This document shows, one piece after another, positions 7,864 through 43,948 of a DNA stretch of 64,000 bases. The DNA comes from Gemmatimonadales bacterium (GTDB taxonomy: Bacteria; Gemmatimonadota; Gemmatimonadetes; Gemmatimonadales; GWC2-71-9), in NCBI GenBank assembly GCA_037045245.1, contig JBAOHR010000010.1, positions 9,569 to 73,568 on the forward strand, given 5' to 3'. A program made the position numbers and the translations under genes. Within the stretch, counting starts at the first letter, position 1. Each line of letters begins with the position of its first letter. The notes under the pieces are model-generated. The model did no database searches. It saw only the letters and a list, made by a program, of their open reading frames with translations, and had not been told where the DNA came from.

Positions 7864-7868
7864 GCATT

Positions 7869-19264: not shown

Positions 19265-19271
19265 ACCGCAG

Positions 19272-19393
19272 GAGTCGTGAGTCATGAGTCGTGAGACGGC
19301 GGCCGGGGAGACCTGGCCGCCGTTTCATTTCGTTTCACGGTCCCACGCCCCCCATTCTCAGGACTCAGGACTCACGTCTCACGCCTGCTCCGC
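19272..19393. repeat. heptamer-built inverted repeat after rpoC: (GAGTCRT)x3 ... (WCTCASG)x4 with an inner GC hairpin
   Basis: Left arm 19278-19297 matches the reverse complement of 19366-19385 at 18/20 positions. The inner hairpin is CGGCGGCC...GGCCGCCG. Confidence 0.75.
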
Positions 19394-20604: not shown

Positions 20605-22743
<2,139 letters not shown>

Positions 22744-22745
22744 CT

Positions 22746-22818
22746 GGTCATAGGTCGTAGGTCCCAGGTCGTAGGCTGACCTGATCCGACACGACCTACG
22801 ACTTACGACTTACGACCG
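22746..22818. repeat. heptamer-built imperfect inverted repeat after fusA: (GGTCRYA)x4 ... (ACGACYT)x4
   Basis: Left units are GGTCATA GGTCGTA GGTCCCA GGTCGTA; right units are ACGACCT ACGACTT ACGACTT ACGACCG. The innermost units are exact complements. Confidence 0.75.
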
Positions 22819-24054: not shown

Positions 24055-24057
24055 GGC

Positions 24058-28310: not shown

Positions 28311-28314
28311 CACC

Positions 28315-28728
28315 ATGTTGGCACCGAAGCGGATCAAGTTCCGCAAGACGTTCAAGGGGCGCACGAAGGGCGTGGCCACCCGCGGGAATTCCGTGGCGTT
28401 CGGCGAGTGGGCGATCACCTCGCTCGAGCCGGGGTGGATCACCAACCGCCAGATCGAGGCGGCCCGCGTGGCGATGACCCGTGAGATGAAGCGTGGCGGC
28501 AAGGTGTGGATCCGGATCTTCCCGGACAAGCCGATCACGAAGAAGCCGGCCGAAACCCGCATGGGCAAGGGCAAGGGCAATCCGGAAGGGTGGGTGGCCG
28601 TGATCAAGCCGGGCCGCGTGCTCTTCGAAGTGGATGGCGTGACGGAAGAATTGGCGCGCGCCGCGTTGGCGCTGGCCCAGGCGAAGCTGCCGGTCCGGAC
28701 CCGCGTCCTCAAGCGCGAGGAGATCTGA
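28315..28728 (+). CDS. rplP: 50S ribosomal protein L16
   Basis: 137 aa ([16 protein letters not shown]...[14 protein letters not shown]). Confidence 0.97.
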
Positions 28729-28731
28729 GGC

Positions 28732-28929
28732 ATGACGAATAGCGTGGACCTGCGGGCGCTCTCGGTCGAGGAGCTCGAGGCAAAACTGGCCGAGCTGCGG
28801 GAGGAGCGCTTCCGCCTGCGCTTCCGCGCCGCGACGGAGACGATCGAAAATCCGATGCGGTTCCGGACCATCCGTCGCGATGTCGCGCGGGTGCTGACGA
28901 TTCTGGGCGAGAAGCGCCGCAAGGCGTGA
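28732..28929 (+). CDS. rpmC: 50S ribosomal protein L29
   Basis: 65 aa (LRALSVEELEAKLAELREERFRLRF). Confidence 0.93.
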   Translation: MTNSVDLRALSVEELEAKLAELREERFRLRFRAATETIENPMRFRTIRRDVARVLTILGEKRRKA

Positions 28930-28933
28930 GGAG

Positions 28934-29212
28934 ATGGCAATGACCGAGAAGACCACTGCCGCCGAACGCCTCGCCCGGAAGATCCGCACGGGCGTCGTGA
29001 CGAGCGACAAGATGCAGAAGACGGTGACCGTCGTGCTGGAGCGCCGGCTGGCGCATCCGAAGTACGGGAAGCAGGTCACCCGCAGCAAGAAGGTGAAGGT
29101 TCGCAATGACCATGACGCCAAGGCGGGCGACACGGTGAAGATCATGGAGACGCGCCCCCTGGCGAAGACCGTCCACTGGCGGACGGTTGAGCTGGTCGAG
29201 CGGGCTCGCTAG
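28934..29212 (+). CDS. rpsQ: 30S ribosomal protein S17
   Basis: 92 aa ([27 protein letters not shown]), with GAGGAG upstream. Confidence 0.95.
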
Positions 29213-29229
29213 GCCGGGGAGACGAAACG

Positions 29230-29598
29230 ATGGTACAGCAGGAGAGCATCCTGAAGATCGCGGACAACTCGGGGGCCCGTAAGGCGCTCGTGATCCGGGT
29301 CCTCGGCGGGTCGCGGCGGCGCTACGCCTCCCTGGGCGACCGGGTGGTGGTGGCGATCAAGGACGCCATTCCGACCGGCCAGGTGAAGAAGGGCGACGTG
29401 GCGAAGGCCGTGATCGTGCGGACCGCGAAGGAAGTGCGCCGGAAGGACGGGTCGTACATCCGCTTCGACGAGAACGCGGCGGTCATCATCAATGACCAGG
29501 GCGAGCCGAAGGCGACCCGCATCTTCGGGCCGGTGGCCCGTGAGCTGCGCGAGAAGCGCTACATGAAGATCGTCTCGCTGGCGCCGGAGGTGCTCTGA
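29230..29598 (+). CDS. rplN: 50S ribosomal protein L14
   Basis: 122 aa ([27 protein letters not shown]). Confidence 0.97.
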
Positions 29599-29599
29599 C

Positions 29600-29980
29600 A
29601 TGAAGCAGCTCGTCTACAAGAAGGCGAAGCGCGTGCGTCACACGGCGCCGGTCTCGCTCCGGATGCACATCACCAAGGGCGACACCGTCCAGGTGATCTC
29701 GGGCGACGACAAGGGGAAGCGCGGGACCGTCCTTCGGGTGTACCCGAAGACCGGCCGCGTCACCGTGGACGGCGTGAACCTGGCGAAGCGGCACCGCCGC
29801 CCGACCCAGACGACGGAGGGGGGGATCTTCACGTTCGCGGCCCCGCTCCACCACTCGAAGGTGATGCTGATCGACCCGACGACGGGCGCACCGACCCGGA
29901 TCCGGCGGCAGAAGGATGCTGACGGGACCGTGGAGCGGATCGCCGTGAAGTCCGGGGCAGCGATTCCGAGGACCCGGTAA
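29600..29980 (+). CDS. rplX: 50S ribosomal protein L24
   Basis: 126 aa with a KOW motif (ITKGDTVQVISGDDKGKRGTVLRV). Confidence 0.93.
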   Translation: MKQLVYKKAKRVRHTAPVSLRMHITKGDTVQVISGDDKGKRGTVLRVYPKTGRVTVDGVNLAKRHRRPTQTTEGGIFTFAAPLHHSKVMLIDPTTGAPTRIRRQKDADGTVERIAVKSGAAIPRTR

Positions 29981-30717
29981 TGGCGAAGACTCCGACGAAG
30001 GGCGGCAAGGACGGCGCCAAGGCGCCGGCGAAGGGTGGCGGCGGCGCGAAGGGCGGCGGCGCGGCGAGCGGGAAGAAGGCGAGCTCGGGCGGCGCCAAGG
30101 GCGCGGTCTCGACCCTGCCGGTCGACGCGGCCCCCAAGGCCCGCGTGGGCAAGCCCCGCATGCAGCTCCACTATGAAGAGGTGGTGCGCGCGCGGCTGGT
30201 GAAGCAGTTCGGCCTCACCAACCCGAACGCGGTGCCGAAGCTCGTGAAGATCGTGCTCAACGTCGGCCTGGGCGAGGGCGCCAAGACGCCGCGCCTGGTC
30301 GACGTCGCGGTCGAGGAGCTGGCGATGGTGACCGGCCAGAAGGCGGTCGTCACCAAGGCGAAGAAGGCGATCGCGAACTTCGGCCTCCGGGCCGGGATGC
30401 CGGTCGGCTGCGCCGTGACGCTCCGCGGGGCCCGGATGTACGAGTTCCTCGACCGCTTCATCACGCTCGCGGTGCCGCGCATGCGCGACTTCCGCGGGCT
30501 GCCGACGAAGAGCTTCGACGGTCGCGGGAACTACACCTTCGGGATCAAGGAACAGATGGTCTTCCCGGAGATCGACTACGACAAGGTCGAGAATGTCCAC
30601 GGGATGGACATCACGCTGGTGACCACGGCGGGTCGCGATGATCTCGCGATGGCGCTGCTGCGCGAGTTTGGCTGGCCCTTCCGCGGGGAGACGCCGACGT
30701 CTCTCCGAGTGGCCTGA
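29980..30717 (+). CDS. rplE: 50S ribosomal protein L5 with a ~60-aa Lys/Gly/Ala-rich N-terminal extension
   Basis: 245 aa from the TAATG-coupled ATG at 29980. The canonical L5 core starts near MQLHYEEVV (an internal ATG around 30160 is an alternative start). The extension has coding-like GC3. Confidence 0.9.
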   Translation: MAKTPTKGGKDGAKAPAKGGGGAKGGGAASGKKASSGGAKGAVSTLPVDAAPKARVGKPRMQLHYEEVVRARLVKQFGLTNPNAVPKLVKIVLNVGLGEGAKTPRLVDVAVEELAMVTGQKAVVTKAKKAIANFGLRAGMPVGCAVTLRGARMYEFLDRFITLAVPRMRDFRGLPTKSFDGRGNYTFGIKEQMVFPEIDYDKVENVHGMDITLVTTAGRDDLAMALLREFGWPFRGETPTSLRVA

Positions 30718-30764
30718 GGGAGCGCGATGATGATGACGAACGGGACCAAGAGGGACGGCAACGC

Positions 30765-31160
30765 ATGAGCATGACAGATCCAGTCGCGGACATGCTGACT
30801 CGCATCCGCAACGCCTGCTCGGCGGGGCACAAGCGCGTGGACATGCCCGCGTCGAAGCTCAAGAACGAGCTCGCGCGGCTGTTGCGCGACAATCACTACA
30901 TCGCGGACTTCAAGGTCCTGGAGGACGGCCCCGCGGGGACGCTCCGCCTGTACCTGAAGTACCACAACGAAATGCCGGTGATTCGCGAGCTGCAGCGCGT
31001 CTCCTCGCCGGGGCTCCGCCGGTACGTCAAGTGCCGCGACCTCCCGCGCGTGAAGAACGGGCTCGGCATCGCGATCGTCTCGACCCCGAAGGGGCTGATG
31101 ACGGACCGCGACGCGCGCACGGCCAACCTGGGCGGCGAACTCCTCGCCGTCGTCTGGTAG
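30765..31160 (+). CDS. rpsH: 30S ribosomal protein S8
   Basis: 131 aa (MTDPVADMLTRIRNA...). Confidence 0.97.
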   Translation: MSMTDPVADMLTRIRNACSAGHKRVDMPASKLKNELARLLRDNHYIADFKVLEDGPAGTLRLYLKYHNEMPVIRELQRVSSPGLRRYVKCRDLPRVKNGLGIAIVSTPKGLMTDRDARTANLGGELLAVVW

Positions 31161-31169
31161 GAGGCGCCC

Positions 31170-31709
31170 ATGTCACGCATTGGCAAGAAGGCGATTCCGC
31201 TGCCGGCCGGCGTCACGGCGAGCATCGAGGGGACCACGGTGACGGTGAAGGGCCCGAAGGGCTCGCTCACCCGCACCCTGCCCCAGGACATCACGCTGCG
31301 CATGGAAGGCGGCGAGATCCTGGTCGAGCGCCCGAGTGAGGCCACGCGGCACAAGGCGCTCCACGGCCTCTCGCGCACCCTCGTGGCCAACATGGTCGAG
31401 GGCGTGTCGAAGGGCTACGTGAAGGCGCTCGAGCTGCAGGGCGTCGGCTACAAGGCCGAGTCCAAGCCCTACGGCGTCAACCTCGTCGTCGGCCTCTCCC
31501 ACCAGGTCGCCATCAAGGCGCCGGACGGGATCAAGCTGATCTGCGAGACCCCGACGCTGCTCAAGGTCGAGGGGATCAACAAGGAACTGGTCGGCCAGGT
31601 GGCCGCCGAGATTCGCAGCGTCCGCCCGCCCGAGCCGTACAAGGGGAAGGGCATTCGCTACCAGGGTGAGCAGGTCCGCCGCAAGGCGGGCAAGACGGGA
31701 GCCAAGTAA
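31170..31709 (+). CDS. rplF: 50S ribosomal protein L6
   Basis: 179 aa ([15 protein letters not shown]...). Confidence 0.97.
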
Positions 31710-32080
31710 TGCGGCCGATTCATTCACCGAAGCGCCGGGAAGACCGCCGCTATCGCCGTCACCTCCGCGTCCGCCTTCGGGTGGCCGGCACCGCCGAGCG
31801 TCCGCGCCTCGTGGTGTACCGTTCGCTGAAGCACATCTACGCCCAGCTCGTCAATGACGATCTCGGCGTGGCGCTCCTCGGCGTGTCGGACACCTCCGAG
31901 GGCATCACGCTCAAGGGCGAAGGGAAGACCGCGAAGGCTGCCGCCGTCGGCCAGTTGCTGGCCGAGAAGGCGAAGGCCGCCGGGATCACCAAGGTGGTGT
32001 TCGACCGGGCTGGCTACCAGTATCACGGCCGCGTCAAGGCCGTGGCCGAGGGCGCCCGCGAGGGCGGATTGGAGTTCTAA
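31709..32080 (+). CDS. rplR: 50S ribosomal protein L18
   Basis: 123 aa ([20 protein letters not shown]...[24 protein letters not shown]). Confidence 0.95.
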
Positions 32081-32805
32081 TGAGCGACGAGACGAAGACG
32101 CCGGAAACGGCGAGCGCCCCCGAGGCGGCCCCGCGGTCGAGCAACAACGGCGGCGGGCAGCAGGGTGGCATGGGTGGCGGCGGCGGCACCGGCACGCACG
32201 GCAATCGCGGGCGCGGCCCGGGTCGCGGTGGCGGGCAGGGTGGCGGCGGCCGGGGGCCGGGCGGCGGCGGGCGGGGTGGCCCGCGTCGTGACGACCGAAA
32301 CGAAGCCGAGAAGGAATTCGTCGAGAACGTCGTGTCGATCAACCGCGTCGCCAAGGTCGTGAAGGGCGGTCGCCGCTTCTCGTTCAACGCCCTCGTGGCG
32401 ATTGGCGACGGGAAGGGGAAGATCGGCATCGCGACCGGCAAGGCGAACGAGGTGTCCGAGGCGGTGCGCAAGGCGGTCGAGGCGGCCAAGCGGGCGATGG
32501 TCGTCATCCCCCGCACGGGCACCACGATCCCGCACGAGATCATCGGCGAGCACGGCGCGGGTCGCGTCCTGCTGCGGCCGGCGGCGAGCGGTACCGGCGT
32601 CATCGCCGGCGGCCCCGTCCGCATGGTCCTCGAGTGTGCCGGGATCACCGACATCCTCACCAAGAGCCTTGGCTCGAACAATCCGCACAACATGGTGCGG
32701 GCCACGGTCCAGGGGCTGCAGTCGCTGGTGTCGGTCGCGCAGATCGCGCGCGAGCGCGGCGTCGAAGTGGACCAGATCGGCTATCGCGCCCGTCAGGAGG
32801 CCTGA
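32080..32805 (+). CDS. rpsE: 30S ribosomal protein S5 with a ~75-aa Gly/Arg-rich (RGG-like) N-terminal extension
   Basis: 241 aa from the TAATG-coupled ATG at 32080. The S5 core starts at [19 protein letters not shown], and there is no alternative in-frame ATG/GTG just upstream of the core. Confidence 0.93.
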
Positions 32806-32808
32806 GTC

Positions 32809-33069
32809 ATGGGACGGAATCCAGTTGTTGGTCGCCAGGGACCGGCGCATCATGCCGCCGTCATCCCCAGCGAGGCTGAGGCGACGCGCCTCCGGGTCAA
32901 GCAGATCCGGTCGGGCATCGGCCACGCCGAGACGATGAATCGGACGCTCAAGTCGATCGGGCTGCGCCACCACCAGGCCGTGATCGAAGTCGACAATACC
33001 GCGACGATGCGCGGGATGCTGTTCAAGGTGCGCCACCTCGTCGAGGTGTCGCCGGCCGGGAGCAAGTGA
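32809..33069 (+). CDS. rpmD: 50S ribosomal protein L30 (N-terminally extended as called)
   Basis: 86 aa. The L30 core is LRVKQIRSGIGHAETMNRTLKSIGLRHHQAVIEVDNTATMRGMLFKVRHLVEV. The start is uncertain. Confidence 0.85.
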   Translation: MGRNPVVGRQGPAHHAAVIPSEAEATRLRVKQIRSGIGHAETMNRTLKSIGLRHHQAVIEVDNTATMRGMLFKVRHLVEVSPAGSK

Positions 33070-33536
33070 GCATGGCAGACAAGACCAAGGGCGTCGAGCA
33101 GATCACGCTGTCGAACCTGCGTCCGGCCCCGGGCTCGCACCGGAACCGGAAGCGGATCGGCCGTGGTCCGGGCTCGGGCACCGGCAAGACCTCCGGCAAG
33201 GGCCACAAGGGCTCGAAGGCCCGCTCCGGCGGCGCCACGAACCCGGGCTTCGAAGGCGGCCAGATGCCGATGTACCGCCGCCTCCCGAAGCGCGGCTTCA
33301 CGAACCCGTTCAAGGTGACCTTCCTCGCCGTGAACCTCCGCCACCTGGCGGGCGTGACCGACGCCGAGATCTCGCCCGCGACGCTGTTCGCGGCCGGCAT
33401 CCTCAAGAACGTCGACGAGCCCGTGAAGTTGCTGGGCCACGGTGAGATCACCCGCGCCATCACCGTGCGCGGCATGCCGGTCTCCGCCGCGGCCAAGGTG
33501 AAGGTCGAGGCGGCAGGCGGCCGGGTCGAGGACTGA
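33066..33536 (+). CDS. rplO: 50S ribosomal protein L15
   Basis: 156 aa (KRIGRGPGSGTGKTSGKGHKG). The start is either GTG 33066 (GTGA overlap) or ATG 33072. Confidence 0.93.
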   Translation: MSMADKTKGVEQITLSNLRPAPGSHRNRKRIGRGPGSGTGKTSGKGHKGSKARSGGATNPGFEGGQMPMYRRLPKRGFTNPFKVTFLAVNLRHLAGVTDAEISPATLFAAGILKNVDEPVKLLGHGEITRAITVRGMPVSAAAKVKVEAAGGRVED

Positions 33537-34855
33537 TGACCGCGCCCACCACGCCGGGCCTCAACATCGACGACGAGCTGGCGAAGAAGCTCAAGTTCGT
33601 CCTGATGGCCGTCCTCATCTACCGCGTCGGCGCCCACATTCCGGCGCCGATGGTCGACGTGACGGCCCTGTCCGCCGCCATCGCCCAGTCGGCTTCGGCC
33701 GGGCTCTTCCAGCTGTATGACGCCATGGGCGGCAACCTGCAGAAGGCGGCCATCTTCGCCCTCGGCATCATGCCGTACATCTCCGCGTCGATCGTCTTCC
33801 AGCTGGGTGCCGGCGTCGTGCCGACCCTCAGCAAGATGCAGAAGGACGAGGAGGGCCGGAAGCAGATCACCCAGTGGACCCGCTACCTCACGGTCGCGAT
33901 CGCGCTGGCCCAGGCCTACACCTTCACGCTCTACGTCGAGTCGATCCCGGGCGCCGTGCCCGAGATCGGCGCGCTCTCGCGGTTCGTGATGGTCGCCACC
34001 CTGACCACCGGCGCGATCTTCGTGATGTGGCTCGGCGAGCAGATCACCGAGCGCGGCATCGGCAACGGGATGAGCCTGCTCATCGCGGTCTCGATCCTCG
34101 AGCGCCTCTGGCCCTCGTTGCTCCAGCTCGTCGGCTTCGTGAAGGACGGCGTCGTCTCGTTCCTCGGCGCCTCCACCTTCCTCGTCGTCCTGATCGCGAT
34201 GATCGCCGCCGTCGTGGCGATGACCCTCGCGTCGCGGAAGATCCCGATCCAGATCCCGCGCAAGGTGATGGGCCGCGGCCGGATCCGCGAAGGGCAGAAG
34301 ACCTTCATCCCGATCCGGCTGATCACCGCCGGCGTGATGCCGATCATCTTCGCCCAGACGGTCATCCTGGTCCCGACCACCGCCGCGCGCTTCTCGAGCT
34401 CGGAGATGATGACCGAGTTCGCGAACTTCCTGGCGCCGGGCACGGCGGCGTATTCGCTGATCTTCGCGCTGCTGATCGTCGTGTTCTCGTACTTCTACAC
34501 CTCGATCATCTTCAACTCGGTCGAGCTGGCCGAGAACCTGAAGAAGCAGGGCGCGTTCATCCCGGGCGTCAAGCCGGGCTCGGCGACCGCCGACTACATC
34601 GACGGCGTCCTCGGCCGGATCACGCTCCCGGGCTCGCTCTTCCTCGCCTTCATCGCCATCGTGCCGCTCATCGTCGCGACGGCGCTCGGCGTCTCGCAGT
34701 TCCAGCTCGGCGGCACCTCGATCCTGATCGTCGTCGGCGTCATGCTCGACACGATCGCGCAGATCGAACAGCACCGCACGCTGCGCAAGTACGACGGCTT
34801 CATGAAGTCGGGGCGCATCAAGTATCGCGGGCGCTCGAGCCGGTTCGGGATGTAG
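33536..34855 (+). CDS. secY: preprotein translocase subunit SecY
   Basis: 439 aa, polytopic membrane protein, with TGATG coupling to rplO. Typical SecY sequence is present (GIMPYISASIVFQL, WLGEQITERGIGNGMSLLI). Confidence 0.97.
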   Translation: MTAPTTPGLNIDDELAKKLKFVLMAVLIYRVGAHIPAPMVDVTALSAAIAQSASAGLFQLYDAMGGNLQKAAIFALGIMPYISASIVFQLGAGVVPTLSKMQKDEEGRKQITQWTRYLTVAIALAQAYTFTLYVESIPGAVPEIGALSRFVMVATLTTGAIFVMWLGEQITERGIGNGMSLLIAVSILERLWPSLLQLVGFVKDGVVSFLGASTFLVVLIAMIAAVVAMTLASRKIPIQIPRKVMGRGRIREGQKTFIPIRLITAGVMPIIFAQTVILVPTTAARFSSSEMMTEFANFLAPGTAAYSLIFALLIVVFSYFYTSIIFNSVELAENLKKQGAFIPGVKPGSATADYIDGVLGRITLPGSLFLAFIAIVPLIVATALGVSQFQLGGTSILIVVGVMLDTIAQIEQHRTLRKYDGFMKSGRIKYRGRSSRFGM

Positions 34856-34893
34856 GTCACGGGGGCGCCTGCGCCCCCGGCTGGACGGCAGAC

Positions 34894-34950
34894 GTCAAAC
34901 GTGAAACGGGAGCCCGAAGGTCGGCCTCCGTTTCACGTTTCACCTTTCAC
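34894..34950. repeat. heptamer-built hairpin after secY: (GTSAAAC)x2 ... (GTTTCAC)x3
   Basis: AAACGTGAAACGG(G)AG at 34897-34912 pairs with CTCCGTTTCACGTTT at 34926-34940 (15 bp, one bulge, 13-nt loop). A separate GC hairpin GGGGGCG-CCTG-CGCCCCC lies at 34861-34878. Confidence 0.8.
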
Positions 34951-35013
34951 GGTGGGCCGTTTACGTTCCCGGGATACCCTGAGTCGTCACCATTCACCGC
35001 ACGGAGTTCGCTC

Positions 35014-35580
35014 GTGGACATCCTGCTTCTCGGACCGCCGGGCGCCGGCAAGGGCACGCAGGGCGCACTGCTCGCCGAGACCCTCGGCCTGCCGAAGTTC
35101 GCCACCGGGGACCTGCTGCGCGACGCCGTCAAGCGCGGCACCCCGCTGGGCCTGCAGGCGCGCGCCCTCATGGAGGCCGGGCACCTGGTCGGCGACGACC
35201 TGATCCTGGGCGTCATCCGGGCCGAGCTCGCCAAGCCCGAGGCCGCGCAGGGCGTGATCTTCGACGGCGTGGTCCGCACCATCCCGCAGGCCGAGGGGAT
35301 GGCCGCCCTCCTCGCCGAAGCCAAGCGGAAGATGACCCACGTCCTCTTCTTCGAGATCGCCGACAGCGTCATCCTCGACCGCCTGGTCAAGCGCCGGGAG
35401 ATCGAGGGGCGCGCCGATGACGACCCGGCCGCCGTCGCGACCCGCCTCGAGGCCTATCGCCGCCAGACCGCCCCGGTGCTCGCCTGGTACCAGGACCACT
35501 GCGGCGTGACCACCATCGATGCCGTCGGCTCGGTCGACGAAGTGGCCGCCCGGGTGCGCGCGGCCGTGTCCGCGGCGTGA
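35014..35580 (+). CDS. adk: adenylate kinase (short-lid type)
   Basis: 188 aa from GTG 35014, with GGAG 7 nt upstream. It has a P-loop (LLLGPPGAGKGTQ) and a short LID (KRREIEGRADDDPAAV). The long ORF from 33874 is an out-of-frame artefact over secY. Confidence 0.93.
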   Translation: MDILLLGPPGAGKGTQGALLAETLGLPKFATGDLLRDAVKRGTPLGLQARALMEAGHLVGDDLILGVIRAELAKPEAAQGVIFDGVVRTIPQAEGMAALLAEAKRKMTHVLFFEIADSVILDRLVKRREIEGRADDDPAAVATRLEAYRRQTAPVLAWYQDHCGVTTIDAVGSVDEVAARVRAAVSAA

Positions 35581-36332
35581 TCACGATCAAGTCGGCGCGG
35601 GAGCTCGACACGATGGCCCGCGCCGGGCGCATCCTGCACGCGACCCTGCAGCGGATGCAGGAGATCCTCCGGCCCGGCATGTCGACCGAGGACCTCGACG
35701 CCGAGGCCGAGCGGTTCATCCGCTCGCACCCCGGCGCATTGCCGTCGTTCAAGGGCTTGTACGGCTTCCCGAAGACGCTCTGCATCTCGATCGACGAGGA
35801 GATCGTCCACAGCATCCCGTCGCCGCGGCGGATCCTCGCCGAGGGATCGATCGTCTCCATCGATTGCGGCGTCTGCATCGAGGGGCTGCACGCCGACTCC
35901 GCCACGACCCTCCCCGTCGGCGCGATCTCGGCGGAGGCGCAGCGGCTCCTCGACGTGACGCAGCAGTCGCTCGTCGCCGGGATCGCCGCGGCGACGGTGG
36001 GACACCAGGTGGGCGACATCGGCCACGCGGTGCAGACGGTCGCCGAGGCGGCGGGCTATGGCGTGGTGCGCGAACTCGTGGGCCACGGCATCGGCACCCG
36101 CTTCCACGAGGAGCCGCAGGTCCCGAACTTCGGCAAGCCGGGCCGCGGCGCGGCCCTCCGGGCCGGAATGACCCTCGCGATCGAGCCGATGATCACGATG
36201 GGGAAGCCGGCCACCAAGACGCTCAAGGACAAGTGGACCGTGGTGACCGCGGATGGGTCACTGGCGGCGCATTTTGAGCATACGGTGGCGGTGCTGGAGG
36301 GTGGGCCGAGAATCTTGACCGATGGGTCGTGA
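35577..36332 (+). CDS. map: type I methionine aminopeptidase
   Basis: 251 aa with a GTGA overlap with adk. Metal-ligand context is typical of MetAP (IVSIDCG, GHGIG, MTLAIEPM, FEHTV). Confidence 0.95.
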   Translation: MITIKSARELDTMARAGRILHATLQRMQEILRPGMSTEDLDAEAERFIRSHPGALPSFKGLYGFPKTLCISIDEEIVHSIPSPRRILAEGSIVSIDCGVCIEGLHADSATTLPVGAISAEAQRLLDVTQQSLVAGIAAATVGHQVGDIGHAVQTVAEAAGYGVVRELVGHGIGTRFHEEPQVPNFGKPGRGAALRAGMTLAIEPMITMGKPATKTLKDKWTVVTADGSLAAHFEHTVAVLEGGPRILTDGS

Positions 36333-36419
36333 GTCCTGAGTCCTGAGAGTTGTGAGGCCGGCATCCCCGCGGATCGTCGGCCTCTCCGCCCTCAGGACTC
36401 AGGACTCAGGACTCACGAC
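36324..36419. repeat. 22-bp perfect inverted repeat made of GAGTCCT/CTCAGGA heptamers, with an inner GC hairpin
   Basis: GTCGTGAGTCCTGAGTCCTGAG at 36326-36347 is the exact reverse complement of 36398-36419. The 50-nt loop contains GAGGCCG...CGGCCTC. The arms include the stop codons of map (36330-36332) and suhB (36399-36401). Confidence 0.9.
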
Positions 36420-37193
36420 TCCCCGCAACCACCCCGCCATCTCCCCACTCCCCGCCACCACCCCGCTGTGCTCCACGCCGAGCGCGCTGCCGTCCAGCTT
36501 CGTCACCACCCCTCCCGCTTCCCGCACCAGCACGATCCCGGCAGCCATGTCCCACGGGGCCAGCATCAGTTCCCAGAAGGCCTCGAAGCGCCCCAGCGCG
36601 ACGTCGACCAGGTCGAGGGCGGCCGACCCGCCGCGGCGAACCCCGGCCGTGGCGCCAAGGACCGCGGCCATCTGCGGCAGGTAGGTCGGGATCAGGTCGG
36701 GATGCTTGAAGGGGAAGCCGGTGCCGATGAGCGCCTGGCCCGGGTCGTGGATCGTGGAGACCCGCATTCGATCACCGTTGGCCCACGCCCCGCCGCCCTG
36801 CCAGGCGGTGTAGCGGCGGTGCGCCGTGGCGTGGAAGACCGTCCCCGCGACCAGCTCGCCGTCGAGGGCCGCGCCGATGGAGACGCACCACATCGGATGG
36901 CCGTGGAGGAAATTGGTGGTGCCGTCGAGCGGATCGACCACCCAGACCAGGCCGTCCATTGCCTCGGCGTCGGGGGAGATCTCCTCGCCCATGACCCGGC
37001 TCGAGGGCTCGGCGCGGAGCAGCGTCTCGCGGATGCGTTCCTCCGCCCCCTGGTCGATCGCCGTCACGTAGTCGTGGTGGCCCTTGGCGGTCCAGGTGGC
37101 CGGGTCCGGACGCGCGGCACCCAGGAGGAACGAGGCGGCTCGGGCAGCGGCCCGTTCCGCCAGGCGGGCCAGGGCGGCGGCCTCGCGGCTCAT
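36399..37193 (-). CDS. suhB: inositol monophosphatase family protein (SuhB-like)
   Basis: 264 aa from ATG 37193 with the motifs WVVDPLDGTTNFLHG and WDMAAG. The ORF-track start at 37358 is antisense to trpS and was rejected. Confidence 0.88.
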   Translation of the reverse strand: MSREAAALARLAERAAARAASFLLGAARPDPATWTAKGHHDYVTAIDQGAEERIRETLLRAEPSSRVMGEEISPDAEAMDGLVWVVDPLDGTTNFLHGHPMWCVSIGAALDGELVAGTVFHATAHRRYTAWQGGGAWANGDRMRVSTIHDPGQALIGTGFPFKHPDLIPTYLPQMAAVLGATAGVRRGGSAALDLVDVALGRFEAFWELMLAPWDMAAGIVLVREAGGVVTKLDGSALGVEHSGVVAGSGEMAGWLRGVVSPES

Positions 37194-37194
37194 G

Positions 37195-37223
37195 TTGCCG
37201 CCCCTTCGCGCTGGCGGTAGCTT
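37195..37223 (+). promoter_or_regulatory. candidate promoter TTGCCG-17 nt-TAGCTT, 6 nt before the trpS ATG (leaderless geometry)
   Basis: TTGCCG at 37195-37200, TAGCTT at 37218-37223 and ATG at 37230, with no SD. The whole divergent suhB/trpS gap is only 36 bp. Confidence 0.35.
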
Positions 37224-37229
37224 GCCGCC

Positions 37230-38222
37230 ATGGCACGCATCTTCTCGGGCATCCAGCCCTCCGGTGAAATGCACATTGGCAACTGGCTCGGGGCGATCCA
37301 GAACTACGTCGCCCTCCAGGATGGCAACGACTGTCTCTACTGCGTGGTCGATCAGCACGCGATCACCGGCAGCTACGAGGTGGGGACCCTCGCGGAGCGC
37401 ACGCGCGAGATGGCGATCTCGCTGCTCGCCGCCGGCGTCGATCCGTCACGCGCGGTGCTCTTCGTGCAGAGTCACGTCCCGCAGCACGCCACGCTGGCCT
37501 GGTTGCTGACCACCATCGCGCCGCTCGGCGAACTCGAGCGGATGACGCAGTACAAGGATAAGTCGCAGCGGTTCGAATCGGTGCCGACGGGGCTGCTGAC
37601 CTACCCGGTGCTCATGGCCGCCGACATCCTGCTCTATCGTGCCGAATCGGTGCCGGTGGGCGAGGACCAGGTGCAGCACCTCGAGCTCGCGCGCGAGCTG
37701 GCGCGCCGGTGGAATGCCGCCTTCGCAAAGGAGGCGCCGCTCTTTCCGGAGCCGCAGCCGATCCTCTCGCCGGCGAAGCGGATCATCGGCCTCGACGGCC
37801 AGGCGAAGATGTCGAAGTCGCTCGGCAACACGATCGGCGTGACGGAGTCGCCCGAGTCGATCTGGCAGAAGCTCCGGCCGGCGATGACCGACCCGGCGCG
37901 CAAGACGAAGACCGATCCCGGCACGCCGGAGATCTGCAACATCTACGCGCTGCATCGCCACTTCTCGCCCGAGGCGACGGTCGCCGAGGTGGCCGTGAAC
38001 TGTCGCACCGCGGCGTGGGGCTGCATCGACTGCAAGAAGGTGCTCGCCGCGAACATGTCGGAGCGGCTCGCCCCGATGCGCGAGCGCTCGCTGGCGCTGC
38101 GGGCGGCGCCGGAGACGCTGCGTCAGGTGCTGGGCGATGGCGCCGCGACCGCCCGGCGGCTCGCGGCGGAGACGATGACCGAGGTCACGGCCCGGATGGG
38201 CTTTCTCGCGGAGGGAGCATGA
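37230..38222 (+). CDS. trpS: tryptophan--tRNA ligase
   Basis: 330 aa, class I synthetase, with GEMHIGNW (HIGH-type) and KMSKSLGN motifs. Confidence 0.95.
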   Translation: MARIFSGIQPSGEMHIGNWLGAIQNYVALQDGNDCLYCVVDQHAITGSYEVGTLAERTREMAISLLAAGVDPSRAVLFVQSHVPQHATLAWLLTTIAPLGELERMTQYKDKSQRFESVPTGLLTYPVLMAADILLYRAESVPVGEDQVQHLELARELARRWNAAFAKEAPLFPEPQPILSPAKRIIGLDGQAKMSKSLGNTIGVTESPESIWQKLRPAMTDPARKTKTDPGTPEICNIYALHRHFSPEATVAEVAVNCRTAAWGCIDCKKVLAANMSERLAPMRERSLALRAAPETLRQVLGDGAATARRLAAETMTEVTARMGFLAEGA

Positions 38223-39256
38223 CCGCCACGTCCCCGATGCTGGCTCGCGTCCTCAAGGCGGCCGTGCTGCGCGACGCCTCCGACGTCCACGCGAAGGCCG
38301 GCGACGTCTTCCGGGCGCGCGTCGGCGGCGTGCTGGTGCCGTTGACCAAGCAGCGTCTCACGCCGGCCCAGACGCGGGCGCTTGCGGCCACGTTCGCCGG
38401 TCTCGACCTCGAGGACCCGCGGCTCGACGCGTTGCGCGACTTCGATTGCTCCTGGGGCGTGCCCGGCATCGGTCGCTTCCGGGTCAACGTCTCCCGGCAG
38501 CGCTCGTCGTTCATGGTGGTGCTCCGGGTCATCCAGTTCTCGGTCCCGACCCCCGAGGGGCTCCAGCTGCCGGAGTTCGTCTCGCGTTTCGCCGAGGCCG
38601 AGGATGGCCTGGTGATCGTCGCGGGACCGAGTGGCTCGGGGAAGACCTCCACGATCGCGGCGATGGTGCATCACATCAACCGCTCGCGGGAACGGCATGT
38701 CGTCACGCTGGAGGATCCGATCGAGTTCCTGCATCGCGACCTGGCGAGCTCGATCACCCAGCGCGAGATCGGGACGGACACGGCCGACGTCGCCGGCGGG
38801 ATCCACGCCGCGCTGCGCCAGGACGCCGACGTGATCGTGATCGGGGACCTGCGCGATTCACTGGCGGTCGATCGCGCCATTCGCGCGGCCGAATCGGGCT
38901 GCCTGGTGCTCGCTGCGGTGAGCGCGATCGACGCCACGTCGGCGCTGATGCAGCTGGTCGCCACGCTTCCCGCCGGCGAGCGGGACGTCGGCCGGATGCG
39001 GTTGGCGGTGGTGTTGCGGGCGGTGCTGGCCCAGCGGCTGGTCGCGGCCCCGGAGGGGGAGGGACGCATCCCGATCCTGGAGTGGATGGAACCGATCCCC
39101 GCCCTCCGTGACGCCCTGGCCGGGGGCGGCGAGGCCGCGGCGCTGCAGAAGGCGCTCGACCGGGCCACCAAGGAGGGGAAGGGGGAGACCTTCGCCCGGG
39201 CCATGGCCGAAGCCGGAGTCGCCGACGAATTGACCCCCCGGCCCCGGGCGCACTAG
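38219..39256 (+). CDS. PilT/PilU-family type IV pilus retraction-type ATPase homolog with degenerate catalytic motifs
   Basis: 345 aa from ATG 38219 (ATGA overlap with trpS). Walker A GPSGSGKTST and Asp box EDPIEF are present. Where PilT has GEMRD and TGHLV..TLHT, this protein has GDLRD and SGCLVLAAVSA. Confidence 0.8.
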   Translation: MTATSPMLARVLKAAVLRDASDVHAKAGDVFRARVGGVLVPLTKQRLTPAQTRALAATFAGLDLEDPRLDALRDFDCSWGVPGIGRFRVNVSRQRSSFMVVLRVIQFSVPTPEGLQLPEFVSRFAEAEDGLVIVAGPSGSGKTSTIAAMVHHINRSRERHVVTLEDPIEFLHRDLASSITQREIGTDTADVAGGIHAALRQDADVIVIGDLRDSLAVDRAIRAAESGCLVLAAVSAIDATSALMQLVATLPAGERDVGRMRLAVVLRAVLAQRLVAAPEGEGRIPILEWMEPIPALRDALAGGGEAAALQKALDRATKEGKGETFARAMAEAGVADELTPRPRAH

Positions 39257-39274
39257 CTTTCGGGGAAGTCGTTC

Positions 39275-39301
39275 AACGGCCTCGCGAGGGGCCGTTTTCT
39301 T
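39275..39301 (+). terminator. rho-independent terminator after the PilT-like gene
   Basis: AACGGCCTC-GCGA-GGGGCCGTT (9-bp stem including one G-U pair, GNRA-type loop) followed by TTTTCTT. Confidence 0.7.
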
Positions 39302-39319
39302 GTGCCGGAGTGGTGAATC

Positions 39320-40600
39320 ATGTTCGACCGGAAGCACAGCTGCATCGTGGTGGTCGGCGCCCAGTGGGGCGACGAAGGGAAGGGGAAGCTGGTCGACGTG
39401 CTGGCCGAGCAGGCGAACGTCGTCGTGCGCTACCAGGGCGGCGCCAATGCGGGCCACACAGTCGTGGTCGGCGATCGCCAGTTCGTCCTGCACCAGATCC
39501 CGTCCGGGATCCTCCATGCCGGCGCCAAGTGCGTCGTCGGCAACGGCGTGGTGCTCGACCCCGAGACCTTCTTCGCCGAACTCGACGAACTCGCGACCCA
39601 GGGGATCGACGTCTCCGGCCGCCTCTTCATCTCGGACCGGGCGCACGTCGTGCTGCCGTACCACAAGCTGCTGGATGCCGCGAGCGAGAAGCAGCAGCAG
39701 ATCGGCACCACGGGGCGGGGCATCGGGCCGACCTACGAGGACAAGATCGGTCGGCGCGGCGTGCGCGTCGCCGACCTGATCCGCGCCAACGTCTCGCGGG
39801 AGTTCGTGGCCGACCGGATCGAGCGGGCGAACGCCCTCCTCGCGATGATGGGGTCGACGGTGCGCGCCGACCTTGAGGAGCACCTCGCCCTCATGGAGCG
39901 CCTGGGCGCCCGTCTGCGGCCACTGGCGACCGACACGGGGTTGCTGGTCCACCAGGCCCTCCGCAGCGGTCAGCGGGTCCTCCTCGAGGGCGCGCAGGGC
40001 GCCCTCCTCGACGTGGACCACGGGACCTATCCGTTCGTCACGTCGTCGAACACGACGGCGGGCGGCGCGGCGATCGGCGCCGGGATCGGTCCGACCGAGA
40101 TCGACGGCGTCCTGGGGGTGGTGAAGGCCTACACGACCCGCGTCGGCAACGGCCCGCTGCCGACCGAGGCCGGGGGCGACCTCGAGGAGCGGCTGCGCAC
40201 CCTCGGCGGCGAGTTCGGTGCGACCACCGGCCGCCCGCGCCGCTGCGGCTGGTTCGACGCCACCGTGGTCCGCTACTCGGTCCGTGTCAACGGCCTCACC
40301 GGCCTCGCGGTCACCAAGCTCGATGTCCTCGACTCGTTCGCCGAGATTCCGGTCTGCACCGCGTATCGCCTCGATGGCGAGGTCTGCAGCGAAGTGCCGA
40401 GCGACGTCGAGCGGCTGGGTCGGGTGGAGCCGGTCTACGAGTCGCTGCCGGGGTGGCAGCGGCCGACCGACGGCGCGCGCAAGCTCGCCGACCTGCCGCC
40501 CGCGGCGCGTGCCTATCTCGACCGGTTGCAGGATCTCTCCGGGGCACCGATTCGGTATGTGAGCGTGGGGACGCGGCGGGATCAGATCATCGAGTGCTGA
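39320..40600 (+). CDS. purA: adenylosuccinate synthase
   Basis: 426 aa (GAQWGDEGKGKLVD, GTTGRGIGPTYEDK, TTGRPRRCGW). Confidence 0.97.
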   Translation: MFDRKHSCIVVVGAQWGDEGKGKLVDVLAEQANVVVRYQGGANAGHTVVVGDRQFVLHQIPSGILHAGAKCVVGNGVVLDPETFFAELDELATQGIDVSGRLFISDRAHVVLPYHKLLDAASEKQQQIGTTGRGIGPTYEDKIGRRGVRVADLIRANVSREFVADRIERANALLAMMGSTVRADLEEHLALMERLGARLRPLATDTGLLVHQALRSGQRVLLEGAQGALLDVDHGTYPFVTSSNTTAGGAAIGAGIGPTEIDGVLGVVKAYTTRVGNGPLPTEAGGDLEERLRTLGGEFGATTGRPRRCGWFDATVVRYSVRVNGLTGLAVTKLDVLDSFAEIPVCTAYRLDGEVCSEVPSDVERLGRVEPVYESLPGWQRPTDGARKLADLPPAARAYLDRLQDLSGAPIRYVSVGTRRDQIIEC

Positions 40601-40602
40601 AG

Positions 40603-40703
40603 GCGAGAAGCGAGAAGCGAGAAGCGTGAAGCGTGAAGCGTGGCCCAGCGGTGAGATCCTCCCGCCGAGCCACGCTTCTCGCTTCTCGCTTCTCGCTTCT
40701 CGA
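40603..40703. repeat. ~35-bp imperfect inverted repeat made of heptamers: (GCGAGAA)x3(GCGTGAA)x2 GCGTGGC ... GCCACGC (TTCTCGC)x3 TTCTCGA
   Basis: Read directly from the sequence. The loop is 24 nt (40645-40668). The element fills the whole gap between convergent purA and the PilX-like gene. Confidence 0.9.
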
Positions 40704-40705
40704 CG

Positions 40706-42754
40706 CTACTGCGCCCGCAAGTCCGCGAAGTACGCCGCCAGTCCCTTCTGCGCGAGCCACACCGGATCCAGTTCGTAGTAGCGCGACTCGATGAAGCGCC
40801 CCGTGGTCGGGAAGTACGGCGGCGGATTGATCGCGCCGCACGGGTCATACGCATGCGCCTCGGCGTAGCCGTACGAGGAGGAGGCGGTGTAGTCGCTGTA
40901 GGTGTAGTAGTCGACGCGGCCCATCGCGATGCCGCCGCTCACGCGCACACAGCCCGCCGGCGCGCCACCGCACCGCTCGGCGGTGGCGGTCGCATCGAAG
41001 GTGCCGGTGAGGAAGTAGGGCGCGGCCGGGCCCGGGACGCCGTTCAGGCCGGTCGTGTAGAAGTTGCCGGTCGTGCCGGTGCCGCTGCCGGCGGCGAGGA
41101 TGAACATGTTGAACTGCTCATCCGTCGGGGTGTCGTCGAAGCCGCCGAACATCCGGGCCGCGACGCGGAACGGGGTCTGCACGTTGTTGTCGGCGATGAT
41201 CGCGTCGAGCGTCGCGATGCTCCCCATGATGTCGCCTTCGGCGTCGCACTTGGTGCCCGGCGCGTTGTGATAGAGGACGTCGTCGGCGAGGATGATGTTG
41301 CCCGTGGCGAAGACCGAGACACGGCCCCGCAGCTTGCCGCTCACGGCGACGTCGCCCTGCACGAAGACCACACCCTTGAAGTTGACGTTGGCGCCGAGCG
41401 GGATCAGGTAGGCGGCATCAGAGCGCACCGCGCTGAGGCCGGCCATCGCACCGCTGCGGCGCTTCTTCCAGAATCCCATCGGATACGTCAACGAGTTGGT
41501 GATCGTGGAGTCGGGTGTGATCACGCTCGACCCGGTGGTCGAGAAGAGCTCGGGGGCGCCGCCCAGCAGGCACTTGCGGGTGCCGGCGGGGGAGGGCGAG
41601 GCCGTGATTGAAGCCGGGCGCGTCCCCTGGGTGCCGCCCGAAAGGACGTACTGGACCGCGGCCCGCTTCACGGCGGCGGTGCCCGTGACGAAGTCGTACA
41701 CGTCCCTGGCCGTGTAGAAGTCCTGGGTGCCGTTCAGGTTGACCACGGCACCACAGTTCCACGACTGCATGTTGGGGTCGTCGTTGTAGGTCGTGCCCGA
41801 CGGGACGCGCGGCCAGCGACGGCCGGTCGTGTAGGCGAGCACCGAGTCGGAGGTGTTCCGGGCCACCCAGACCCGCATGAAGCCCTCGTTCCATTCGATC
41901 GTGCCGTTGCCGTTCACGTCGACGGTCAGGAACTCGATGCGCATCCCGGGCGTGTGCGACCCCGTGGTCGGGGCGGTGAGATCGTAGTCGCCGTTCGCGG
42001 CGTCGGCATCCTGGGCATACTGCCGCATCAGGTTGATGCGGGCCGGCGTCGGCCAGGGCACCGCCGTCGCACCGACCTTGATCCCCTTGCGGTAGTCCCC
42101 GGAGCTCTGGTTCGTCACCGAACCGACGACCGTGACCGGACCGGCGAAGACGGTCTTCGGCGAGGTGCAGCCCGACTGCAACTTGAGGGCGTTGTTCGAG
42201 TGGAACGGCCCCGTGATCGACTCGCTGCAGCCGTACGCCGCCGAGCCCGCCCAGTTGTTGACGGCGACGGCGAACTTGGCCCACGATTCCTGCGTCAGGA
42301 GCAGGCGTCGGGCGGCGACGGCGCCGCGTCCGTCACGAATCACGGAGAGTGCGCTGGCGAAGTTGCTCCCGTACTGCCCGGCGGTGGCCGAACCGCCGGT
42401 GCGCCCGCCGGTCCGTCCCACGTAGAGGGAGCGGGAGATGTACGGCACCGTGCCGCCCAGGGCGTCGAGCACCGGGGCGTTGCTGGCCATCGTCGTGTAG
42501 CCGTTGAACGGCAGCAGCGAATCGAAGATGCCGCGGTTGAGCGAGTCGCGGATGATCTCGAGGCCGCCGTTCGCCGCCGCTTGCAGTGCGGCTTCCTTCG
42601 CCGTGAACTTGGTGGTCTCCTGGGCGGCACCGCTCATGAGGATCGCGCCCATGGCCATCGCCGCGATCGCGATCGACACCAGCAGCGTGAGGATGAGGGC
42701 GGCGCCGCGCCGGTCGTGGCGCAACGCGCGGGGGCGTGGCAGCGTGGTGGTCAT
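40706..42754 (-). CDS. large PilX-N-terminal-domain protein (putative pilus-tip/minor-pilin-associated protein)
   Basis: 682 aa from ATG 42754 (ATGA overlap with the upstream gene). The N-terminus RRGAALILTLLVSIAIAAMAMGAIL resembles the PilX_N pattern. The rest is Gly/Thr/Ser/Asn-rich and beta-helix-like (KGVVFVQGDVAVSGKLRGRVSVFATGNIILADDVLY). The 975-aa ORF-track start was rejected. Confidence 0.7.
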   Translation of the reverse strand: MTTTLPRPRALRHDRRGAALILTLLVSIAIAAMAMGAILMSGAAQETTKFTAKEAALQAAANGGLEIIRDSLNRGIFDSLLPFNGYTTMASNAPVLDALGGTVPYISRSLYVGRTGGRTGGSATAGQYGSNFASALSVIRDGRGAVAARRLLLTQESWAKFAVAVNNWAGSAAYGCSESITGPFHSNNALKLQSGCTSPKTVFAGPVTVVGSVTNQSSGDYRKGIKVGATAVPWPTPARINLMRQYAQDADAANGDYDLTAPTTGSHTPGMRIEFLTVDVNGNGTIEWNEGFMRVWVARNTSDSVLAYTTGRRWPRVPSGTTYNDDPNMQSWNCGAVVNLNGTQDFYTARDVYDFVTGTAAVKRAAVQYVLSGGTQGTRPASITASPSPAGTRKCLLGGAPELFSTTGSSVITPDSTITNSLTYPMGFWKKRRSGAMAGLSAVRSDAAYLIPLGANVNFKGVVFVQGDVAVSGKLRGRVSVFATGNIILADDVLYHNAPGTKCDAEGDIMGSIATLDAIIADNNVQTPFRVAARMFGGFDDTPTDEQFNMFILAAGSGTGTTGNFYTTGLNGVPGPAAPYFLTGTFDATATAERCGGAPAGCVRVSGGIAMGRVDYYTYSDYTASSSYGYAEAHAYDPCGAINPPPYFPTTGRFIESRYYELDPVWLAQKGLAAYFADLRAQ

Positions 42755-43947: not shown

Positions 43948-43948
43948 G

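Follow-up and report, generated by a model that had tools for sequence, protein, structure and literature searches.

How two convergent genes come to end inside a single perfect palindrome, what such a structure would do at the ends of their transcripts, and how its arms stay complementary are questions raised by one locus in a 64,000-nucleotide (nt) stretch of DNA from a soil bacterium of the order Gemmatimonadales (GenBank assembly GCA_037045245.1, contig JBAOHR010000010.1, forward-strand positions 9,569 to 73,568; hereafter the window, numbered from its first letter). Here map, the gene for methionine aminopeptidase, lies on the plus strand and faces a suhB-like gene of the inositol monophosphatase family on the minus strand, and the two are separated by a hairpin whose arms consist of tandem 7-nt units. 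The locus is a member of an order-wide class of heptamer-repeat hairpins situated just after stop codons. On balance, the element at the map–suhB junction is probably a 3′-end stem-loop without a U-tract, serving both convergent transcripts and built by slippage and exchange between its arms.

The hairpin at the map–suhB junction

A sequence-only reading of the locus had described two arms of 22 nt that are exact reverse complements and contain the stop codons of both genes. An inverted-repeat search recovered the same arms (36326-36347 and 36398-36419, 100% complementary, 50 nt apart), and the sequence together with the list of open reading frames (ORFs) places both stop codons within them, the map TGA at 36330-36332 on the plus strand and the suhB-like TGA at 36401-36399 on the minus strand. 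The heptameric make-up of the arms is borne out by Tandem Repeats Finder, which reports period-7 arrays at 36326-36347 (3.1 copies) and 36391-36421 (4.4 copies). The GC hairpin claimed for the 50-nt loop, in which GAGGCCG (36354-36360) pairs with CGGCCTC (36378-36384), is present as a stem in the predicted fold, and the loop folded alone reaches -22.7 kcal/mol. As a whole, the element (36323-36421) reads GGGTCGTGAGTCCTGAGTCCTGAG, the 50-nt loop and CTCAGGACTCAGGACTCAGGACTCACGACTC, and this compound stem-loop occupies the entire gap between the convergent genes.

Each strand folds into a stable stem-loop, with a minimum free energy of -76.4 kcal/mol (z -8.67) on the plus strand and -73.4 kcal/mol (z -5.70) on the minus strand, and in both cases 0 of 200 dinucleotide shuffles fold as well. 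The perfect 22-base-pair (bp) pairing claimed earlier holds for the arms themselves, which are exactly complementary, and not for the minimum-energy fold, which takes a register shifted by one unit. As the right arm is one unit longer than the left, the stem can pair in two registers; in the one of minimum energy (a 7-nt shift), 36330-36347 pairs with 36391-36408 and 36323-36328 with 36410-36415, stacking on the inner hairpin.

Assembly error does not account for the hairpin. L081, a Logan contig assembled independently, carries a sequence identical to that of the window and breaks off inside the right arm, and four independent assemblies of one related species (L086-L089) show the same hairpin architecture. 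The exact map protein was found on one other contig only, again L081, a contig that is identical and truncated within the arm. The 17-mer GAGTCCTGAGTCCTGAG, with two mismatches at most, occurs 11 times in the window against 0.01 expected. An Rfam scan of the whole window at gathering thresholds returned four tRNAs and no match at the hairpin.

A class of heptamer hairpins at gene ends

The earlier suggestion that the hairpin belongs to a family was confirmed by four further heptamer hairpins within the window (Table 1), and its extent was assessed in a census of the window and 79 related loci (837 kb, about 80 species). Genes were called with an approximate caller of our own, which extends upstream from a stop codon while the codon-position G+C score rises; because the loci are grouped around a single operon and come from related species, the counts lack independence. 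Among GTDB species genomes, the 80 closest map loci all come from metagenome-assembled genomes of Gemmatimonadales/Gemmatimonadota, bar one bin labelled Actinomycetes, and the best match (L001) is 95% identical. Arrays of at least three units number 165 at period 7, 13 at period 8 and none at periods 10, 11 and 13. A count of the window alone gave 24 arrays of period 7, one of period 8 and none of periods 10 and 11. Almost all period-7 arrays of the census (154/165) either are non-coding or fall at the very 3′ terminus of a gene; for 120, an inverted partner lies no more than 250 nt away, and many others pair with a diverged unit. Heptamer arrays are a property of the order Gemmatimonadales.

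The arrays are distributed unevenly with respect to gene orientation. They occur in 15 of 49 convergent gaps (31%), 60 of 508 co-directional gaps (12%), 1 of 34 divergent gaps (3%) and 0 of 21 gaps co-directional on the minus strand, the difference between convergent and divergent gaps being significant (Fisher p = 0.0015). In gaps after a plus-strand gene, 59 of 141 arrays begin between -10 and +10 nt from the upstream stop codon and constitute first arms, with the second arm 40-80 nt beyond; the median arm has about 4 units and the median loop 23 nt. T-rich tails (at least 5 T in 8) follow 9 of 42 co-directional members (21%) compared with 31 of 681 control windows (4.6%), and many of them then lead to a GGAG ribosome-binding site.

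At the same junctions in relatives, the structure at a fixed site is conserved and its sequence is not. Species in which map and suhB are adjacent mostly have a stop-to-stop hairpin, made of units that differ from one to the next: GATGAGA (L003), GAGAGAA (L004), GCGAGGG (L012), CCGGAGA (L018), GGCGAAC (L035), GTGAAAC (L040) and CGAGATA (L071). Non-heptamer hairpins occupy the junction in L046, L064 and L070 and a long direct array in L017, and in L001, L013, L063 and L073 the genes overlap and there is no hairpin. Between secY and adk, arrays are found in 46 of 70 genomes and comprise at least 31 different units, and of the 21 foldable gaps lacking an array, 19 still fold with z of -2.8 or lower. 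The orientation bias, the conserved structural slot and the T-rich tails together argue for a role of the class at transcript 3′ ends.

L001 also carries a 15-unit array (GCGAACG, then GCGAACA) at 10957-11062, at another gene end, so the class is present in that genome though its map–suhB site is empty.

Stop codons within the repeat unit

First arms are purine-rich (71%), and 46 of 63 (73%; 42 with TGA) contain a stop codon on the sense strand within the unit, compared with 25% for random heptamers of equal composition; an antisense-strand stop is found in 6 of 63. The arms have a fixed order, in which the purine-rich one that bears TGA leads, and, the element being an inverted repeat, the stop-bearing arm is met first from either direction. 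At map–suhB, every unit of the left array holds TGA, closing all three plus-strand frames, and the right array, read on the minus strand as GTCGTGA GTCCTGA GTCCTGA GTCCTGA, closes all three for ribosomes travelling in the suhB direction. Since the unit holds TGA and 7 is not a multiple of 3, three units close all frames in both directions, and this is why both genes end inside the arms.

A core, G-T-R-A-R-N-R, is shared by 101 of the 165 arrays, positions 5-7 differing between sites. Positions 2-4 of the units in these core arrays read TGA 273 times, TAA 64 times, TAG 7 times and TGG 3 times, and the map–suhB unit, when rotated (GTGAGTC/CTGAGTC), fits the core. The conserved A at position 4 alone cannot separate the keeping of a stop codon from the keeping of GTRA.

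Alternatively, the arrays might be read as such: the G-T-R-A core at 7-nt spacing (T-Y-A-C on the other arm) would be recognised by a protein or a nuclease, for instance RNase III acting on the long perfect duplex or a protein binding every 7 nt, and polycistronic mRNA would thereby be processed or regulated, the three-frame stops perhaps being selected as a fail-safe against read-through. Persistence of the core in 101 arrays despite variable positions 5-7 would fit such recognition, as would the excess of sense-strand stops in first arms (73% versus 25% expected) and the location of members between cistrons with plausible differential expression (fusA–tuf, secY–adk and nusG–rplK). A perfect duplex of 18-22 bp has the length of an RNase III substrate. 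However, about 40% of arrays fall outside the core and about 20% of those downstream of a plus-strand gene are free of stops in either orientation, no candidate protein was identified, and the core could also reflect a shared ancestry of the units or a composition rich in purines with one T. Such a binding or processing array is judged quite improbable.

Turnover of the arms

Contigs of close relatives, reached through SuhB homologs of 78-91% identity, display the element in several altered forms. In L086-L089 the left arm has four GTCCTGA units and the right arm CTCACGA CTCAGGA CTCAGGA CTCACCA, around a loop unrelated to that of the window. L090 has two units on the left and eleven CTCAGGA on the right, around a loop that matches the L086 loop in reverse complement (alignment score 76.5 inverted, 30 direct). 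In L085 the right arm alternates CTCAGGA and CTCACGA, and the contig ends before the left arm and loop. The closest relative, L082 (SuhB 91%), has eight GTCGTAA/GTCGTAG units on the left and four CTATGAC on the right, with a loop of about 9 nt in the fold, and TGA is replaced by TAA or TAG on both arms. Among close relatives, therefore, unit copy number ranges from 2 to 11, both arms switch unit together, and the loop is inverted in one case. This pattern would be explained by replication slippage within the arms combined with recombination or conversion between the inverted arms.

The short-read contigs L081 and L085 both terminate within the right arm. It seems that heptamer hairpins interrupt assembly, and metagenome-assembled genomes may hold fewer of them than exist.

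Slippage and conversion of the arms might suffice by themselves, in which case the element would be a functionless, self-perpetuating palindromic microsatellite that arises wherever it is tolerated, namely in the few non-coding bases after stop codons and not in promoters or coding sequence. Its very rapid turnover and its absence from L001 accord with this explanation, and so do arm copy numbers that vary independently of each other (one relative has 11 units against 2-3), arm imperfections without asymmetry between sense and antisense strands, and unpaired arrays at 53218-53329 and 54654-54746. PMC4679880 and PMC4692102, citing Mrazek et al. 2007, likewise ascribe the bacterial excess of heptamers to polymerase slippage. 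Yet a strong hairpin, heptameric or not, is retained at the same junctions in nearly all species, and divergent gaps, which hold the most non-coding DNA per gap, are almost free of arrays. The enrichment of T-rich tails and the fixed order of the arms (46/63 versus 6/63 in the reverse sense) also speak against pure tolerance, and the absence of any function is considered unlikely.

Insertion of a mobile element resembling repetitive extragenic palindromic (REP) sequences or miniature inverted-repeat transposable elements, carried to gene ends by a transposase such as the REP-associated tyrosine transposase (RAYT), would account for an extragenic palindrome at 3′ ends whose presence varies between close relatives. 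Units of the type GAGTCNT occur at three sites of the window, and the loop in L086 and L090 contains a dispersed REP-like core, TCCTGAGCGAAG, also found in L053 and L074. Against this, the loops of the five elements in the window are unrelated, showing no mutual similarity beyond shuffles; units vary by site, as opposed to the single consensus of REPs; the arm begins GTCGTGA, with no conserved GTAG or CGTC head at the foot of the stem; copy number shifts by whole units, as expected from slippage and not from transposition; and no transposase was seen within these 64 kb of the genome. An origin by transposition is highly unlikely.

The loop core of L086 and L090 recurs at 5359 in L053 and at 2720 and 2765 in L074. 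A dispersed, REP-like-looking element, GTCATCCYGAGC...GCGAGGGATC / GTCATCCTGAGCGAAGTCG...CGAAGGACC, lies in the rplL–rpoB gap of the window (10040-10232) and also forms the map–suhB loop in L086 (around 3205-3265) and L090 (around 4850-4900), in opposite orientations.

A contingency locus for phase variation does not fit: the arrays lie at or after stop codons and not in promoters or 5′ coding sequence, and a change of copy number alters at most the last few residues because each unit contains a stop.

A possible role in termination or 3′-end protection

The window contains, on one strand, tuf, secE-nusG, rplKAJL, rpoBC, rpsLG-fusA-tuf and the S10/spc ribosomal-protein genes through secY, adk and map, followed by the convergent suhB-like gene. 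In gene calls based on G+C content at third codon positions, map is the last of a series of genes on one strand, after the ribosomal-protein genes, secY and adk. The hairpin thus stands at the end of a long and presumably heavily transcribed unit, facing an oncoming gene.

In the favoured explanation, the hairpin would be part of both convergent mRNAs, at their 3′ ends, and would adopt a near-identical fold from either strand. The stem-loop would stall RNA polymerase and/or, more probably, block 3′-to-5′ exonucleases after Rho-dependent or collision-driven termination, so that both transcript ends would be fixed and the two genes insulated from each other. Slippage within each arm and recombination or conversion between arms would keep the arms complementary despite the fast turnover of their sequence. 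The element is a stable stem-loop without a U-tract near a stop codon, as is characteristic of the protective 3′ type of Rho-dependent transcripts (PMC13613805). Past the hairpin, each strand reads into the coding sequence of the opposing gene.

The sequence-only reading had gone further and named the hairpin a likely bidirectional terminator. Of this, the 3′-end role agrees with the statistics of the class; the mechanism implied does not fare as well. A canonical bidirectional intrinsic (Rho-independent) terminator, in which a hairpin with a U-tract releases RNA polymerase on either strand, would draw support from the very stable stem-loop on both strands, from the position of the site at the close of a long, probably highly transcribed operon opposite a convergent gene, from the T-rich tails of some co-directional members, and from the rpoC member, which encloses a canonical hairpin with a T-tract. 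Such terminators require the stem to be preceded by an A-tract and followed by a U-tract, and at map–suhB both are absent. No T run follows the stem on the plus strand (CTCCCCGCAACC) or on the minus strand (CCCATCGGTCAAG), and since both flanks are coding no tract can exist. A consensus terminator scan of 28000-46000 passes over the hairpin, yet picks out a canonical one, with its T run, at 39275-39296. The stem is moreover compound, with a 50-nt outer loop and the suhB stop deep within it. Apart from a stable G+C-rich stem-loop, nothing that defines a canonical bidirectional intrinsic terminator is present, and intrinsic release on both strands is regarded as doubtful.

Several observations weigh against a 3′-end role as well, a role in termination or 3′-end protection that we infer from position and structure. 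The plus strand lacks a U-tract 3′ of the stem (tail CTCCCCGCAACC / CTCCCCGCAACCACCCC) and an A-tract 5′ of it (upstream CTTGACCGATGGG), and the minus-strand tail, CCCATCGGTCAAG, has no T run. The closest species-level genome, L001, has a map protein 95% identical and no hairpin, so the element is dispensable. With the suhB stop 18-21 nt into the stem, each translating ribosome must open the outer stem, and coupled translation would disfavour efficient co-transcriptional termination in the suhB direction. If the terminator enclosed in the rpoC hairpin is used, the outer right arm there is left untranscribed. Selection on the RNA was sought in 31 co-directional elements by the logic that sense-strand G·U pairs become A·C mismatches on the antisense strand: G·U pairs number 66 on the sense strand versus 62 on the antisense strand and the mean fold is -50.0 versus -50.9 kcal/mol. 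These figures show no trace of selection on the sense-strand RNA, and a process acting on the DNA palindrome would give the same outcome. The copy numbers of the two arms are uncorrelated (Spearman 0.18, p 0.21), so pairing is not tightly kept unit for unit. To these is added the non-independence of the census loci.

The rpoC terminator itself lies in the loop of the heptamer hairpin (19296-19340) and consists of a stem, ACGGCGGCC...GGCCGCCGT, followed by TTTCATTTCGTTTC.

A broader proposal extends the favoured explanation to the whole genome, in which self-renewing GTRA-core hairpins would form a class of three-frame stop cassettes and U-tract-independent two-way terminators or insulators, perhaps read by a factor with 7-nt spacing, their sequence rewritten and their structure kept. 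This is speculative and is given little probability; if true, the class would be a natural system for asking why bacterial repeats favour 7-nt units.

Relation to known repeats

The closest known kind is the heptanucleotide hairpin of the cyanobacterial STRRs (short repetitive sequences repeated in tandem), and the present class is not a new category. It shares with STRRs a tandem unit of 7 nt, an intergenic location and the capacity to form hairpins. STRRs occur in filamentous cyanobacteria of low G+C with few units genome-wide, whereas the present units belong to high-G+C Gemmatimonadales, are site-specific and mostly have the G-T-R-A core; moreover, unlike in STRRs, the arms begin at a stop codon or extend over it, in some cases supply the codons of C-terminal residues, and show an enrichment in convergent gaps. 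The STRR unit sequences used for this comparison are those reportedly given by Mazel et al. 1990; the units here are GTCCTGA and similar. In cyanobacteria, the tandem 7-bp units are intergenic and form hairpins, for example between hupS and hupL, with suggested roles in transcript stability and translational coupling (PMC2670836), and they lie between co-transcribed genes and vary between strains (PMC2670836, PMC4692102).

Other heptamers resemble the class in part. The intergenic GGGAATC of Xanthomonas and GGGGA(T/C)T of Nostoc occupy the same sites in related species with wide variation in length and sequence, and some are inverted (PMC4692102); those units are G-rich, have been proposed to form G-quadruplexes and mostly make single arrays of one unit, whereas the units described here are not prone to G-quadruplexes and are usually paired in a hairpin. 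The TAACTGA repeats of marine Beggiatoaceae contain stop codons in all three frames and so overlap only the very end of an ORF (PMC4679880). Three-frame stops are common to both; TAACTGA is one fixed unit, in 169 direct sets versus one indirect and mostly upstream of start codons (PMC4679880), and here there are many units, in inverted pairs, downstream of stops.

REP sequences and the bacterial interspersed mosaic elements (BIMEs) of enterobacteria and pseudomonads are, according to PMC3733652, palindromes at 3′ ends and in convergent gaps, hypothesised to act in termination and mRNA stabilisation. REPs measure 20-40 bp and have a genome-wide consensus, a GTAG/CGTC head and a link to RAYT; unlike them, the elements in these 64 kb of genome have no common sequence, consist of tandem-repeat arms and vary by whole units. 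Bidirectional intrinsic terminators (Ju, Li and Liu 2019, as cited in PMC13613805) likewise serve two convergent genes with one hairpin. Among mapped 3′ ends, those of high-GC bacteria and those that depend on Rho often carry a stem-loop without a U-tract, which is believed to hold back exonucleases, and in species of high GC the stems are longer and the U-tracts shorter (PMC13613805). These stem-loops too have long, stable stems just past stop codons. They are of ordinary unique sequence, and their description in PMC13613805 contains no tandem heptamer arms or in-stem stops, unlike the element here.

Over-representation of heptamers has been known in bacteria since 2007 and in cyanobacteria since 1990, without a settled function or mechanism (PMC4692102, PMC4679880, PMC2670836). 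In the literature searched, the coverage of which is incomplete, no description of heptamer or palindromic repeats in Gemmatimonas, Gemmatimonadetes or Gemmatimonadota was found. The value of the present observations lies mainly in the class and its evolutionary dynamics and less in this single locus. The map–suhB series across dozens of species offers an unusually clean comparison, in which a hairpin, usually of 7-nt units, recurs at one junction and unit, copy number and loop orientation shift between close relatives. It makes two questions testable: what part such hairpins play where transcripts end, in a phylum of high G+C for which molecular genetics hardly exists, and how slippage and arm conversion keep a palindrome perfect while rewriting its sequence. 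In practice, the hairpins break short-read assemblies and make the annotated C-termini of adjoining genes unreliable and lineage-specific.

C-termini of the flanking genes

Both C-termini had been proposed to be partly encoded by repeat units, perhaps as lineage-specific additions. The claim succeeds in part for suhB and fails for map. The map ORF ends ...GGG TCG TGA, and the same C-terminus, ...TDGS before the stop, is found in L001, whose two genes overlap (TCATGA) without a hairpin, and in L002, where the element is another one; the occurrence of these residues without the repeat is what the sequence-only reading had named as refuting its proposal. The DGS end of map is ancestral, its last codon and stop having been absorbed into the arm, and is not an addition.

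The suhB-like ORF ends, on the minus strand, GTC GTG AGT CCT GAG TCC TGA, and its last six codons (VVSPES) are read from heptamer units. SuhB homologs share ...W-L-R-x-V-V and then diverge into SPES (the window and P0005), GPES, GRES, GHMS or RRDS, each matching the local unit, so the last four residues do follow the repeat; in the four relatives checked at the DNA level (L012, L035, L040 and L071) heptamer units can be seen to encode the tail. After W-x-x, a tail of 7 residues is the mode (44 of 116 homologs, the window included). As this length is typical of the family, SPES is a replacement and not an extension; it stays constant because an array of stop-bearing units read from GTC always terminates after six codons.

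Among the 116 homologs there is a second group with tails of 13-14 residues, which differ from 7 by the equivalent of three heptamers (one 21-nt block). Several tails, among them GEKQEARSEK, GDSAKGEARGA and ERRTANGG, have the look of translated repeats (SuhB homologs P0014, P0022, P0036, P0024, P0046, P0049, P0058, P0042 and P0083). At the other end of the gene, the start of suhB (ATG 37193, minus strand) and that of trpS (ATG 37230, plus strand) are 36 nt apart, which leaves scant room for two divergent promoters.

Other repeats in the window

The features of the junction and the other heptamer arrays of the window are collected in Table 1.

Table 1. Genes and repeat features at the map–suhB junction and heptamer arrays elsewhere in the window
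Feature	Coordinates	Strand	Sequence or units	Basis or remark
map (methionine aminopeptidase, 251 amino acids)	35577..36332	+		ORF list; homologous products with PF00557 Peptidase_M24
Left (5′ on +) heptamer array	36323..36347		GTCGTGA GTCCTGA GTCCTGA G	Perfect 22-nt arm 36326-36347
Inner G+C-rich hairpin	36354..36384		GAGGCCGGCAUCC-CCGC-GGAU-CGUCGGCCUC	In the 50-nt loop; minimum-energy folds, both strands
Right heptamer array	36391..36421		CTCAGGA (three), CTCACGA, CTC (4.4 units)	Perfect 22-nt arm 36398-36419
suhB-like inositol monophosphatase family gene (264 amino acids)	36399..37193	-	Start MSREAAALARLA	ORF list, start-codon survey; homologs of 264 amino acids with PF00459
Sister element after rpoC	19269..19383		GAGTCGT/GAGTCAT ... 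CTCAGGA/CTCACGT	Unit family as at map–suhB; loop holds a canonical hairpin with T-rich tail
Sister element, fusA–tuf	22743..22816		GGTCGTA/GGTCATA ... ACGACCT/ACGACTT	
Sister element, secY–adk	34884..34950		ACGTGAA ... CGTTTCA	
Sister element, convergent gap	40601..40702		GCGAGAA/GCGTGAA ... CGCTTCT	Begins straight after the stop at 40600
Unpaired arrays	7866-7901; 53218-53329; 54654-54746			

The possibility that an array originates as a duplication of the gene's own stop codon was tried and found unsupported as a general rule, the native stops of rpoC and fusA being off the 7-nt register (16 and 10 nt).

The three unpaired arrays differ in kind. The one after nusG (7866-7901) has ATCGATC units, each with a palindrome of its own (ATCGAT), which allows one array to fold without a partner, and similar CATCGAT/CATCGCC arrays fill the map–suhB gap in L010 and L017. 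The region at 53218-53329, in a convergent gap, comprises three tandem arrays (TGAGTCG-, GGTCGTT/GCCGTTA- and GGTCGTA-type) without an inverted partner, all with plus-strand stops. The third, at 54654-54746, is a direct array of 13 units (eight TCACCGT, then TCACTGG/TCACCCC variants), 9 nt before an ATG at 54756, and is the only divergent-gap array among the 34 divergent gaps surveyed.

A non-heptamer class of 3′ hairpins is also present. A REP-like GC hairpin, GTAGGGGCGACGCATGCGTCGCCCGTAC, stands directly after both copies of tuf (6957-6990 and 24057-24090), and a variant of it, GGGGCGAGGCATGCCTCGCCC, follows rpsG (around 20377-20405). A second hairpin, GGGCGCAGCCTGCTGCGCCC, likewise follows both tuf copies.

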